Of a DNA stretch of 64,000 bases, positions 7,193 through 64,000 are shown piece by piece; within the stretch, counting starts at the first letter, position 1, and every line of letters starts with the position of its first letter. The stretch is from Mobula hypostoma. Taxonomy: Eukaryota. Made by a program: the position numbers and the translations under genes. Below the pieces are notes generated by a model. That model saw only the letters and a list, made by a program, of their open reading frames with translations. It was not told the origin of the DNA and made no database searches. Location: NCBI RefSeq assembly GCF_963921235.1, contig NC_086097.1, forward strand, positions 84,260,001 through 84,324,000. The letters run 5' to 3'.

Positions 7193-7885
7193 AGCGGTCC
7201 CTTGGCAGTCTTCTTAGGCAGTCTCTCAGCATCTGGGATAGTTTGCATTCATTCTGGATTGGGCAGGCAGTGGATGATGTGGCAGGCAAGTAGTTAGTGA
7301 CGTAGTCAGTTCCTCCCACCACATGCACAGACTTGATTCTCGGTACTATCCTGAGTTTCCTCTACACCGAGTGCTCATGGGCCAGAGATTCCCAGACGTT
7401 AATAGCCATGTTATCTTTTCCAAGGAAACTTTGAGCACTCCCCTGAATCATTTCCTCTCTCTGCCTGGTAGTCCTGTCCAGTGACAGAATACAGGAAGGA
7501 ATGTCTGTTTCAGGAGTCTGCTGTCTGTCATGCAGACAATGTAGCTGCCCAATGTAACTTCATCCTTAGTGCTGGGATGTTGGCTCGGGAATGAATACTG
7601 ACCTTGGTCTGCTTCTCCTGATGAAGTTGGAGAATTTTGCTCTTGGATCAAGTAAACTACATTTGACACTCCTCTATATTTCAACAGCAAGATCACTGCA
7701 GAGACACGATCATTTATTACCCTGTTGGTTCCGCTGCCATTTCCATTTGTGTCCAGGATCACCAGACTCCTGATGGTGCTGAGCTGGAATTGCATTTCCT
7801 TCACTTTAGGCAGATGTTATTTTTTTTTCAATAAAGAGATTTACCTGGGTAGGGTAGGATTCTGACTTGGACTTGAGTGTAGCTA

Positions 7886-8407
7886 CGAGGGGTGATTGAT
7901 AAGTTTATGCTCTGTGGTAGAAGGAGTCAATTTTAGAAAACCTAGCACATTTATTTTTCAACATAGTCCCCTCCTACATGTACACACTTAGTCCAGCAGT
8001 TGTGGAGCATATGGATCCCTTCTTTGTAGAAGTCAGCGTCTTGGACCTCCAGAAAGTAGTCCACAGCTGGGGTGATTGATAGGTTCGTGGCCTAAGGTAG
8101 GAGATGAGTTATACAGCTCTCGTTACGTGCACATGCAGTTCAACTCTTTGAGTGATTATGCAGAAAGTTTGAAGTTAATAACGCATCTTCTGCTACCTTA
8201 GACCATGAACTTATCAATCACCCCTGCTGTGGACCACTTTCTGCAGGTCCAAGACGCCGACTTCTACAAAGAAGTGATCTGTTTGCTCCATGACCGCTGG
8301 ACTAAGTGTGCAAATGTAGGAGGGGACTATGTTGAAAAATAAACGTGCTAGGTTTTCTAAAATTGATTCCTTCTACCATAGACCACGAACTTATCAATCA
8401 CCCCTGG
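7886..8407. mobile_element. Mariner-derived MITE with long inverted arms, flanked by TA
   Basis: Ends are TA|CGAGGGGTGATTGATAAGT and ACTTATCAATCACCCCTGG|TA. The arms are reverse complements over about 220 bp. 8226-8342 translates AVDHFLQVQDADFYKEVICLLHDRWTKCANVGGDYVEK*, a mariner transposase C-terminus. Confidence 0.9.
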
Positions 8408-9046
8408 TATGTTGCAGTGTGCCATTCAGTTTCTTGGGAACCTGAAGGAGAAGTGGTGCTGCTCAGGAACGAATGCAAGTTGTGTATTTGATGCAATTTC
8501 ATTCTCTGTGCAAACTTGGGTCAAGAGGGGTAGCCAATTACTGTAATTTCTCATTAACAGGTCTATTTTTGACTTGCCATTGGCACTACTGTAAATCTAA
8601 CCACCTTGTTAGCTTCCCTTCCTCCAGTGATAGGAAGGAGTGTGCTCAGAAGGTGGGAAAAATGTGCCCAGGGCTGCACAACAAGGTGTATGTTTTTTGT
8701 ACTCAAGCTTTTCGACTGGCTGATGGCTGCTAATTCAAGCAATATTCAAACTCCTGTAAGTTCAAGATCCTGGACAAAACGTCCACAAATACAAACTATG
8801 CTAAAGCTGTTCAGCACCTCCTTGTGTGTCATTTCAACACAAGCAATATTTAGAAAATAGCTCCGACTTGCACTTGCTTGGAAACTTTCTTTATAGGTGA
8901 ATGGAGGTTTCTCATTTTAATGGAGCAGTTTTCACTATTGCCGTGACTGAGGCCAAAGGTTCATGCAAGAGCAGAGCGGGTAGCATCCCGACGAGTCACA
9001 ATATTCTGTAAGTACAACAGTAATAAAATCTGCTCTCATTTTACAG

Positions 9047-13461: not shown

Positions 13462-13660
13462 AACACAAAATGCTGGAGGAACTCAGCAGACCAGGCAGCA
13501 TCCTGGAAAAAAGTACAGTCCACATTTCAGGCCAAAACCCCTCGGCAGGATTGAAAGTCGACTGTACTCTTTTCCATAGATGCTGCCTGGTCTGCTGAGT
13601 TCCTCCAGCATTTTGTGTGTGTTGCTCGGATTTCCAGCATCTGCAGATCTTCTCTTGTTT
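13462..13660. mobile_element. Fold-back Penelope-like (PLE) terminal-repeat fragment
   Basis: acacaaaatgctggaggaactcagcagaccaggcagcatc... is followed by its reverse complement. The same sequence terminates the GIY-YIG-coding PLE at 18218-19075. Confidence 0.85.
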
Positions 13661-14922: not shown

Positions 14923-15161
14923 CACAAACAGAATTTCTGCAGATTCTGGAAATCCAAGCCACACACACAAAATGCTGGAGGCATTCAGCAGGCCAGGCAG
15001 CAACTATGGAAAGGACTGCAGTCGATGTCTCAAGCCGAGACCCTTCCTCGAAAGTGGGGGGGGGGGTGGTCCTGAGGAAGGGTCTTGGCTCAAAACTTTG
15101 ACTGTACTCATTGCCATAGATGCTGCCTGGCCTGCTGAGTTCCTCCAGCATTTTGTATGTG
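14923..15161. mobile_element. Fold-back PLE terminal fragment with 13-bp TSD
   Basis: Inverted arms surround a G-run spacer. TSD is TTCTGTATCTTCT (14910-14922) and TTCTCTATCTTCT (15162-15174). Hammerhead motifs are degenerate. Confidence 0.85.
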
Positions 15162-15179
15162 TTCTCTATCTTCTGCCTA

Positions 15180-57471: not shown

Positions 57472-57552
57472 AGATCACAGCACCAACCCTTTGGATAAAG
57501 CAACTAGTTAGTAAAGACTCCAAGCATAATGGCTCCAGTATGAGGATTCAAG
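57472..57552 (+). CDS. SMOC1: SMOC1 coding exon 7, 81 bp, phase 1 to 1
   Basis: ttttgctctctttcag acceptor and AAG|gtaagt donor. Translates (E)ITAPTLWIKQLVSKDSKHNGSSMRIQ, versus human EITAPTLWIKHLVIKDSKLNNTNIRNS. An N-glycosylation sequon (NGS) is present in the same region. Confidence 0.95.
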
Positions 57553-60500: not shown

Positions 60501-62254
60501 GGCTGTTCACTGATGCATTTCATGACTGGAATGTGTTCTCAATGCAATCATATTTCACCGAAGTTCCCAACTTACCCTTAACTTACTCTTAATTTTTATT
60601 CCCTGTTTGTAATGGAATTTTCATTGATGCCAGTTATTCAAACCTATCCATAGCCAGTGTAGCGTGGAAGCATTGGGTCCACCATGGGCAGCAGTCGGTG
60701 TATCATTACTGTGGACACAGCCTGTTCTCGCTGGTGTCCAGAAACCCCTGCACAGCTCACCTCTTTACAACCTTGGAACTGCCCAGATGCAGATTCTTGG
60801 CTGTGGCATTATCTGATTAAAATCACTCATGCCAAATGCGAATCTGAATAGAAAGGCACTGCAATATTTACAGCATCATTGCTTGGTGCATGGTAAGGAT
60901 TACAGTGTGTCCTTGTGACCTCTGGACAAAGCAGTCAATTTAATGCCAATTTATGGCTTGCTTTGTGCTGAACTTCAACCCAACTGGGAACTTGGTTCTC
61001 TTCATGCAGACCCCTGGCCAATAAGAAAATAGAGGGAAGGTTTCCTTTCCTTTCATTTTTTTCTGGGCTGGATCTGTTCCAAGGTCTTGGAGGTGAAATG
61101 GTTGTCTGCTAATCCATTGTAACAACTAGCCTAGTGGATCTTTGGCAGAATGGAAGCTTATCCTTGCTCATTTGGAGAGCAGAAGTGGTTTCACTGGCAT
61201 TGGGGGAAAAATTCCATGCGACTTACATCATTAAAAATTATTCAAGACACCTTTGTTCCAAAATCAGCAGTAGACTTGTCCTTGGATAGCTCAGCTAATT
61301 ACCAATATGTGTTTACAAGGTTGGAATCTTGTAGTGTTACGTTTACACGAGAGTGGTGAAAATACCTCAAACGCACAGGGCTGCAAGTCTGAGCAGTACA
61401 GAATTACATTGCTCCCACAAGAATAAGCTTCTTTCCAAACACAATTTTTCAGTTTTGCTCAAGAAAGGCCTCCCTTTTGTGCCATGTCGGAGAATTAATG
61501 GAGTTTTAGGGAAATGGGGGAGGTTGCTCTGAGTACAGTCTGCAGCATTGGATAGCCGCAGCTGCTTCCTGCTTCTCTCTCAGGCTGTCATCATTCTCTC
61601 CCTCCACTAGTGCAAAGTTGATTTGGCTTCTGGATGCCCACATGTTTCTCTACCAGTGCTGTTCACCCCTAGATCCCACTATCATTCTGAAGCTGAAGAT
61701 GCATCTCAGTTTTGCCCTCATCTATCTCCAAATCTGTCTTTGGTTTTTATTTCTGATTTACAAGTCCCATCTTGTCTTAAAGCTCTCCTTCAGTCCTCGG
61801 CTCACCTCCCCTTATCTGGCCCAAGAGTTAGCCACCCTTGATAGCTAAATCTGGCTTCACCACCAGCCTTGTTGTTCTAACTGATGACTCATTATATTGA
61901 CCCCTTTTCACACTTACTTTCCCAAGACCTCATAATATTGGCACTGCTTCTGCAGATCATTCCAGCTCCTGAAAGTTATAAGTTTTTAATTCCTAGTCTT
62001 GGCGTTGTCAATAAAACTCAGCTCATTGTCCTAGAAACCCATGGGTATGAGAGACGTGTCCAGTCCATGGGATTTAGCCTTCACACCGGATATTGTTCTG
62101 AACAATCTCCATCCAGACATCTGCTCAGCATCAATGGAATCCTGTAATTTTCATGTAAACAACAGGAATTCTGCAGATGCTGGAAATTCAAGCAACACAC
62201 ATCAAAGTTGCTGGTGAACGCAGCAGGCCAGGCAGCATCTCTAGGAAGAGGTAC

Positions 62255-62290
62255 AGTCGACGTTTCAGGCCGAGACCCTTCATCAGAACT
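62255..62290 (-). ncRNA. Minimal type I hammerhead ribozyme motif (antisense)
   Basis: The reverse strand reads AGTT-CTGATGA-AGG(gtctcgg)CCT-GAAA-C-GTC|GACT. Cores are intact and there is one G-U pair in stem I. Confidence 0.75.
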
Positions 62291-62373
62291 AACTGAAGGA
62301 AGAGTGAGTAAGAGATTTGAGCTGGCCCTTCCCCCCCCCACTTTCAAATCTCTTACTAACTCTTCCTTCAGTT

Positions 62374-62409
62374 AGTCCTGACGAAGGGTCTTGGCCTGAA
62401 ACGTCGACT
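62374..62409 (+). ncRNA. Minimal type I hammerhead ribozyme motif (sense to SMOC1 pre-mRNA)
   Basis: AGTC-CTGACGA-AGG(gtcttgg)CCT-GAAA-C-GTC|GACT. Stem I is AGTC/GACT, the CUGANGA and GAAA cores are intact, stem III is the palindrome ACGT, and the GUC cleavage triplet is at 62403-62405. Confidence 0.8.
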
Positions 62410-64000
62410 GTACCTCTTCCTAGAGATGCTGCCTGGCCTGCTGCGTTCACCAGCAACTTTGATGAATTTTCATGTAGGACATTTTTCATGAGCATCCCGA
62501 TCTAGAGATCATAAACATGTTTTCCCTTTTACAAAGTTAACTTTATCTTTTAAAGGGTTGGCATATTATTTTAATGTGTTTGTAATTCAGGGCCACACAA
62601 AATACTTGTGACGAATTCCTGGTCGATGTGGTCTTTGATGGGCTCACAAAGAAATCAAGTGACTGTAACCATGAATTATCTTTATTTGAATTGATACACT
62701 CTGGATCTCAGGAGATCCCAACATACAATAATTCTATTTAAGAGCACAGCAAGTTCTCTTAATTTGCATAATTATTGGCCAAGGCTCACGCCCTTGGAAA
62801 TGGTGCTCCAGAATCTTCTATACCTGAAGGGGTAGTTAGGCCCTGATTTTAACTTCTCGTTGAGGAACAACCCTTTAGACTAAGCAACACAGACAGTCAT
62901 CAGTATCTTTGTGCTCAGGTTTGGAGACATGATCCATGACCATCTGTTTGAGGCAACGGTGCCACGAAGTGAGCCACCGTTATCATCACAGCAATTTTAC
63001 CTTTGTTGTAAATCTCATATAAAACCTGTTCATGTTCTGTTTAGTGAATGCAGTTAAAGTGTGTATGGGATGGATGGGGCGTGTGGTGGAGGGAGGGAGG
63101 AAGAAAACGTACGCAAATAAGAAGCCCAGCTTTGTGGGACTGCTAAGGCAGCATTAGGTTATACTGTCCAGTGATTTGTAAATGTTTCAGTGTGACAGAA
63201 GTGTGACAGGTTCTTTTAATATATTTGCTTAGCAATAATGTGCTACGGGATGGAAAACTTGAGCGATGATGCAATTACGTGACCCAGTTTAGATAGGTGA
63301 TGAAAAACCAGGCTGAAATTCACGCAATGGATCCTGGGACATAACTTAAAGAGCCAAATTTTGGAACCAACCAAACTGAAACTAATCCATGGCTATTAAA
63401 CCAGGTGAAAATATCATTAGACAAACCTAGCATTGTTATAGTAACCTGCCAGAAGTTTGCACTAGGAGGGGTGGTGGGCTTCAGACTTTCACAAGTGTAA
63501 ATTCCTTTCCCCTTGTTTCCATTTCTTTCTGCATCTTCAAAAGTTGCATTGGCATTTTAAGGGGGGATTTGCTTCTGTAGATGAGTAACTGCTGTTATTT
63601 CCAGCATCTGAAAGCTGGGGAAGACATGGGTTACTGTTTAAGAGTTCTGATTTTAAGATGTTTGCTTTGGGGCAGTGGTTTCCATCTTGATGTTTTGAAT
63701 GAATATTTTTTTCAAAAATATACTTCATTCATAAAACTTGCAAGTAAACAGTACAGTATTTTCATATGTCACATTCGCTGCACATGATATATTATTCACA
63801 TGTTATATCAGCAGAACGTCATTTTTTTCTTTCACATAAGGGATGGTGTGGGCCATTTTTACTCAGGGCCCTATTTAAGTGGGACCTATATTATAGCCAC
63901 TTTCTTATTATAGCCTTAATGATGGCTGTCCTGAATTTCAGCACGTCCCTGGCACTTGGTCGTGCAGCTGGAGCTGTGCCAGCCAGATGCCCTGACTGCT

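Follow-up and report, generated by a model that had tools for sequence, protein, structure and literature searches.

What is a short fold-back sequence that carries a hammerhead ribozyme core on each of its strands, and how did it arise? Such a sequence occupies positions 62146-62476 of a 64,000-nt stretch of Mobula hypostoma DNA (contig NC_086097.1, positions 84,260,001 to 84,324,000 of the forward strand), referred to here as the window, and lies in an intron of a SMOC-type gene. A preliminary description of this DNA had recognised a Penelope-like origin and had likened the product, a non-coding RNA rod bearing ribozymes of both polarities, superficially to a retrozyme or viroid. Our analysis leads to another answer. 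The hairpin is very probably a dead, doubly 5'-truncated insertion of a Penelope-like element (PLE), in which two ends of the terminal repeat (pLTR) were joined head to head, likely in one integration event; within this explanation, we place more confidence in the identity of the element than in the twin-priming step by which both ends would have been made.

The insert measures 307 bp and lies between two identical copies (12 of 12 positions) of AATTTTCATGTA, at 62146-62157 and 62465-62476. Its inverted arms (62200-62320 and 62344-62464) are separated by 23 nt and agree in 117 of their 121 positions, and the predicted folding energy of the strand is -244.3 kcal/mol (z = -30.2 relative to 100 shuffled sequences); the near-perfect arms of about 120 bp and the perfect 12-bp repeat are thus as first described. 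The hairpin is asymmetric, as is seen when element positions (r1, r2 and so on) are counted inward from the 3' tip of the PLE. Its left part (62158-62320) is a tailed, 5'-truncated pLTR copy spanning r1-r163, in element sense on the minus strand, of which the first 42 nt (62158-62199, r1-r42) form a 3' tail present in this arm alone. The right part (62326-62464) is a tail-less, 5'-truncated pLTR copy running from r181 to r43 in element sense on the plus strand, and its 18 nt at 62326-62343 are unmirrored in the left arm. At the junction stands a 5-nt filler, GCTGG (62321-62325), possibly copied from element r230-236 via a GA microhomology. The four mismatches between the arms are all one-sided, two of them representing CpG decay, and compensatory changes are absent. 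A scan of 61500-63200 against Rfam gave 19 matches, mostly to miRNA-type hairpin models and every one below the gathering threshold, and left the hammerhead model unmatched at E up to 5; the miRNA matches reflect the hairpin shape only.

The 12-bp repeat is a true target-site duplication (TSD), because two other organisms (X14 and X15) have contigs in which the site is unoccupied and the upstream and downstream flanks are linked by one 12-mer only. This also bears out the earlier claim that the duplication encloses the whole unit. In a third organism, element sequence is present at both insertion junctions. The insertion is common to organisms A and B and is lacking from organisms D and E, with a flank divergence of about 5-7%.

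A search of the organism's own genome (3.48 Gb) returned 652 candidates, of which 40 were scored. Many genomic copies are 98-99% identical to the left arm at their 3' ends and extend for up to about 3 kb, the long ones bearing open reading frames (ORFs). Copy L032 has an 871-codon frame, whose neighbours in the ESM Atlas are RVT_1/GIY-YIG/HTH_animal clusters (score 0.98). A YIGET...H endonuclease motif was found in all seven copies read, preceded in six of them by a CxxxxCxxC linker of the CKRNKCYTC type. In copies L157 and L160, pLTR and tail are followed by about 425 nt and then by the ORF body at r3093, which makes this pLTR the 5' one of a partial tandem. A Cys motif in the linker between reverse transcriptase (RT) and endonuclease (EN) has been given as a feature of Neptune and Nematis (PMC8557442). 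On these sequence features, we assign the arms to the terminal repeat of a putative Neptune-type PLE with RT, Cys linker and GIY-YIG domain, in agreement with the Penelope-like origin and minimal type-I hammerheads named in the preliminary description. The family is present in high numbers: a 27-nt 3' motif has 68,081 exact matches in the genome, compared with 0 for the reversed-pattern control. In L157 and L160, the ORF frame opens just within the tail region after a stop codon, beside polypyrimidine-AG stretches, and a pLTR intron, as in Drosophila Penelope, may exist.

Each arm carries the hammerhead of this terminal repeat. The sole two matches to the core pattern CUGANGA...GAAACGUC in the window lie at 62378-62405 on the plus strand (ribozyme 62374-62409, predicted cut after 62405) and at 62286-62259 on the minus strand (ribozyme 62255-62290). 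By core pattern and fold prediction, both arms have the features of the minimal type-I hammerhead, namely the CUGANGA, GAAA and UH core, stems I and II and the palindromic 15.2-16.2 region, with a 4-bp stem I and a complete set of core nucleotides. The description of an intact hammerhead in each polarity holds for these nucleotides and less well for the pairing around them. Both cores have U at 11.1, where G10.1-U11.1 or A-U replaces the usual G-C pair, and stem I of the minus-strand core includes a U-G wobble. The G10.1-C11.1 pair, which PMC4209133 reports as conserved in minimal PLE hammerheads, is therefore absent from both arms. Genome-wide, exact 31-nt cores number 45,156 with U11.1 (84% of 53,768) and 8,612 with C11.1 (reversed-pattern controls, 0), which suggests that the most successful subfamily of this PLE spread with a non-canonical closing pair of stem II.

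In plus-strand pre-mRNA the antisense arm would come first and mask the sense ribozyme, as had been proposed; within the whole hairpin RNA, the predicted pairing probability of stem I is about 0. We regard the hammerheads as passengers inherited with the pLTR, predicted to be locked inside the hairpin in any read-through RNA, and masking is expected for every head-to-head insertion, whichever its direction. A built-in off switch is not needed to explain why the insertion is tolerated, since 30 of 49 solo arms in the sample described below retain a complete core that is unmasked; the right arm folded alone, moreover, barely forms stem I (predicted probability 0.002-0.004). In published work, a minimal PLE hammerhead showed no activity as a monomer and little as a dimer (PMC4209133), and another PLE hammerhead required the element protein (PMC11167929).

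The layout of the window copy is best judged against its relatives. A junction-blind sample was drawn from the first 100 listed matches to the 3' motif, in the first 3.8 Mb of contig C1, with their surroundings fetched, and it resolves to 87 insertions, 38 of them head-to-head pairs and 49 solo arms. In every one of the 38 pairs the tail is present on exactly one arm, whose tip lies at r1-r7, and is missing from the partner arm, whose tip lies mostly at r27-r54; the window shows the same one-arm tail. The earlier suggestion of an inverted terminal copy made at integration is supported. Pair statistics were computed on 37, one pair having been dropped with a partner arm of 74% identity. All 37 junctions are distinct, and the lengths form a continuum from 93 to 3,621 bp; in 13 pairs both arms reach r129 and remain under 200 nt, as in the window copy. 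A TSD of 12-19 nt was called in 28 of the 37, one mismatch being allowed and the lengths possibly including microhomology. At non-CpG subfamily sites, paired arms agree in 188 of 214 comparisons, as against 51% +/- 8% in shuffled pairs (0 of 5,000 permutations), and therefore derive from the same source locus or RNA. The window's own junction occurs once in the 3.5 Gb genome with one mismatch allowed, and the 11 best whole-length matches to the hairpin differ throughout in spacer and flanks. Head-to-head pairs less than 100 nt apart number 6 among the first 100 listed exact cores, from which about 2,700 such close hairpins can be extrapolated for the genome.

Tailed and tail-less arms at first seemed to show a fixed difference at r130, which was discarded as a selection artefact. 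The copies concerned had been chosen for their resemblance to the left arm of the window, whereas only 2 of 84 covering arms have A at r130 in the junction-blind sample. One locus (L030, ~1064-1199) is a PLE end, r1-137, nested inside an arm of a head-to-head copy of the same family.

For the origin of the hairpin we propose a route in which the RT-GIY-YIG protein would cut both target strands about 12 nt apart, and each 3'-OH would prime reverse transcription on element RNA of the same source, with one RT start at the tail site r1 and the other some 36-42 nt further in. Both cDNAs would stop early, here at r163 and r181, slightly past the main stop zone of r125-154; their ends would presumably be joined with the 5-nt filler, and fill-in would yield the TSD. 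Several parts of this route have been reported for a purified PLE protein in vitro (PMC11167929), a predicted dimer that cuts both target strands and extends them, starts reverse transcription at two sites bounding the tail and uses uncut RNA as its main template. The stop zone is a property of the sampled family: 34 of 100 arm 5' ends cluster at r125-154, just 5' of the core, at 1.9 per 100 nt at risk compared with 0.09-0.65 elsewhere; in these counts, ends below r70 are invisible, positions are precise to within a few nt, and the two arms of a pair are not independent observations. Around the ribozyme cut site (r99-105), only 4 of the 100 ends are found, at 0.65 per 100 nt at risk versus 0.36 and 0.44 on either side, so that a peak at the cut site was not clearly found among these 100 ends. 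The accumulation of ends at r125-154, with few at the cut site, suggests run-off at the 5' end of uncut, pLTR-initiated RNA, and an internal promoter within the pLTR has been reported for Penelope (PMC2377424). An alternative would be stalling of RT at a predicted local hairpin.

The rival that survives best keeps the same PLE and replaces priming on two strands with a fold-back or self-priming step, in which either the first cDNA snaps back or an antisense or read-through template is used. Fold-back has been proposed for palindromic head-to-head PLE junctions (PMC3846280), and it would also give paired arms the same subfamily alleles. It gains further from observations that count against our explanation: paired arm lengths are correlated (Spearman 0.54), they fall within 10 nt of each other in 15 of 37 pairs where 6.7 are expected (a level that 1 of 5,000 permutations reaches), some pairs end alike (628/628, 159/159, 142/142 and 72/72), and several pair junctions are palindromic. 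Such length coupling and palindromic junctions fit fold-back or self-priming in some copies, or both RTs halting at the same RNA end. Other points on the debit side are that 26 of the 214 subfamily comparisons differ between paired arms, as do the two arms of the window hairpin at r149; that 9 of the 37 sampled pairs gave no TSD call; and that the sample covers 3.8 Mb of one contig. The element assignment has its own: the L032 frame matched no Pfam family at E 0.001 and nothing in a PDB sequence search, copy L046 gave only sub-cut-off matches to GIY-YIG (E 0.002) and RVT_1 (E 0.098), and the clade label Neptune follows from the linker motif. What favours two-strand priming is the geometry of the arms. 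In element positions, the two window arms overlap without either including the other (r1-163 and r43-181), so that neither can be a simple fold-back product. Among the 37 pairs, a length excess of more than 10 nt lies with the tail-less arm in 13 and with the tailed arm in 9. A single-cDNA snap-back cannot produce the 13 with a longer tail-less arm, because their tail sits on the shorter arm and could not be copied from a longer arm that lacks it. Finally, the one-tail rule in 38 of 38 pairs matches the two RT start sites reported in PMC11167929. We therefore consider fold-back an unlikely origin for the hairpin, and two-strand priming the better account.

The reading put forward in the preliminary description, that the hairpin is a rod-like non-coding RNA with a ribozyme per polarity, which spreads whole in the manner of a retrozyme or viroid and is tolerated through its hairpin off switch, fares much worse. 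Both cores are complete, the RNA would indeed fold into a rod, and masking of the ribozyme is predicted. A replicating unit should nevertheless recur with its own junction, and the preliminary description had itself held that junctions unique to each copy would mark the hairpin as a by-product of integration; at the DNA level, the window junction occurs once, all 37 sampled junctions differ and sizes run through a continuum. Release of monomers from retrozymes and viroids requires two same-sense ribozymes or multimers, and the two cores here are of opposite sense and mutually masked. The one-strand A-to-G signature of A-to-I editing, raised earlier as a possible trace, was absent from the window copy and flagged in 0 of 63 pairs. 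With unmasked cores in most of the solo arms as well, we regard this reading as highly improbable.

The position of the hairpin in a gene raises the separate matter of a host function. Exon domains on the plus strand indicate a gene of SMOC architecture (thyroglobulin-1, Thyroglob_assoc and thyroglobulin-1 exons). Thyroglobulin-1 exons lie at about 9.06-9.17 kb and 30.1-30.3 kb of the window; the nearest identified exon upstream of the hairpin, at 57472-57552, matches Thyroglob_assoc (PF16597, E 1.8e-08), and the next identified exon, a second thyroglobulin-1 exon (E 2.1e-21), lies 28.5 kb past the hairpin, beyond the window. The intron assignment made earlier thus stands as far as a SMOC-type gene is concerned; by its exon peptides, the gene is presumably SMOC1 rather than SMOC2. 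The hairpin lies in the intron that follows the Thyroglob_assoc exon, 4.6 kb from the nearest identified exon.

Other PLE remnants accompany it. Across the SMOC region (114 kb), family matches number 11 in sense and 14 in antisense orientation, mostly old and with no obvious bias in these small numbers. The introns of the host gene contain older remains of related PLE ends, at about 75-84% identity, which occur singly or as head-to-head pairs and in both orientations, for example at 13471-13659 and 14927-15162 of the window and at 92250-92332, just beyond it; the intron of the hairpin also has a solo, sense-oriented, degenerate hammerhead core. A separate self-inverted repeat of about 525 bp with 82% identity, at 7884-8409, is unmatched by the PLE reference. 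In a presumed-RNA run (X13), pieces of the PLE family are present, and the locus is spanned by no contig.

A 121-bp near-perfect duplex would, if transcribed, be a substrate for ADAR or Dicer, and the host might have recruited the hairpin as an intronic regulatory structure, acting in splicing, as an editing substrate or as a source of small RNA in the SMOC gene. That potential, and the presence of the insertion in both organisms A and B, are what such recruitment has in its favour. Against it stand organisms D and E, which do without the hairpin at flanks that are only about 5-7% different, the one-sided arm mismatches, with their CpG decay and lack of compensation, and the distance of 4.6 kb to the nearest identified exon; thousands of comparable stumps are, moreover, expected genome-wide. 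Recruitment accordingly has very little to commend it as an explanation. A MITE-like non-autonomous family (miniature inverted-repeat transposable elements) moved by a DNA transposase, suggested by a short, non-coding sequence with inverted repeats and a TSD, can be dismissed almost outright, given ends made asymmetric by a 42-nt tail on one side, TSDs of 12-19 nt, unshared junctions and sizes, and a continuum towards longer copies whose arms run into the RT ORF, which refutes it.

The arrangement we describe is an ordinary one that has already been reported for PLEs, and the window hairpin is one of an estimated few thousand in this genome. Insertion units of endonuclease-bearing (EN+) PLEs are known to combine a 5'-truncated pLTR in inverted position with a TSD and with a tail of 30-40 bp on one side (PMC3846280, PMC8557442). 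Pen2a_Av (PMC3846280), the PLE units in Fig. 2 of PMC8557442 and Penelope of D. virilis (PMC2377424) resemble our family in their head-to-head pLTRs, one-arm tail, TSD, pLTR hammerhead and partial-tandem parent; as described there, they differ from the window hairpin, in which both copies are under 200 nt and only the two ends are left, the tail is 42 nt long and the family numbers tens of thousands of copies. Metazoan PLEs are also reported to carry dual minimal hammerheads on opposite strands, about 100-700 bp apart (Cervera and de la Pena 2014, PMC4209133), and the two opposite-strand cores of the window, 91 nt apart, are comparable. They share with those ribozymes a helix III consisting only of palindromic ACGU, a 4-bp stem I and an extra A after A9, and they differ in a stem II of 3-4 bp and in the dominance of the U11.1 subfamily (45,156 versus 8,612).

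A biochemical parallel is PAc, a Poseidon element of Anolis (Frangieh et al. 2024, PMC11167929), whose two tail-bounding RT starts, extension on both strands and uncleaved template together predict the layout seen in the window. PAc belongs to another PLE clade, whereas the family studied here is putatively Neptune-type and has a Cys linker. Animal non-LTR retrozymes (bioRxiv 10.64898/2026.07.22.740005) are likewise non-coding, derived from a PLE pLTR and equipped with type-I hammerheads, but are described as same-sense, head-to-tail arrays, in contrast to a single head-to-head pair with cores on opposite strands. Head-to-tail arrays do occur at other loci of the window family. At L163-L165 (G000:C1:46047315-46048500), a head-to-tail pLTR tandem of roughly 441-bp units (r254-r1 plus about 190 nt downstream) has three to four ends, each with a hammerhead and all of one sense, a retrozyme-like and dimer-competent layout. 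Further short head-to-tail pLTR tandems were seen at L147, L148/L149, L152, L161 and L167; the tandem junctions vary by locus, and at 5 of 6 loci they fall at about +165 to +195 beyond the tail.

Twin priming itself is familiar from L1, in which both target strands prime and an inversion within the TSD joins non-overlapping segments of one RNA. The window differs in that both arms start at the 3' end, hence the palindrome. L1-like inversions were also observed in this family: L051 (~206-1513) joins r1-953 forward to r943-1303 inverted, not two 3' ends, and L034 and L040 are inversions of the same type with non-overlapping or partly overlapping segments. Among the titles listed by a literature search, which did not extend to subscription journals or Repbase, none dealt with this PLE family or with twin priming in PLEs.

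The hairpin alone is of little importance. Its features do carry a caution: short PLE insertions will by default show a hammerhead in both polarities of a rod-like RNA, and searches can mistake them for viroid-like elements. As a population, the stumps have some value, as the origin of the inverted pLTRs and tails of PLEs is named in PMC8557442 as an open question. We suggest tentatively, and at somewhat short of an even chance, that the stumps may be an in vivo record of the PLE reaction, in which one protein complex would prime both target strands, using the two RT start sites of RNA transcribed from one source locus, and the majority of short cDNAs would end by run-off where the pLTR-initiated RNA begins, a little 5' of an uncut hammerhead. 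Testable predictions for the in vitro system of PMC11167929 follow from the one-tail rule, from the subfamily alleles that paired arms share and from the zone 5' of the ribozyme in which arm ends cluster. If the suggestion is true, the ribozyme would be dispensable for this reaction or act at a later stage, and its 10.1-11.1 pair could have drifted to G-U in the most successful subfamily.

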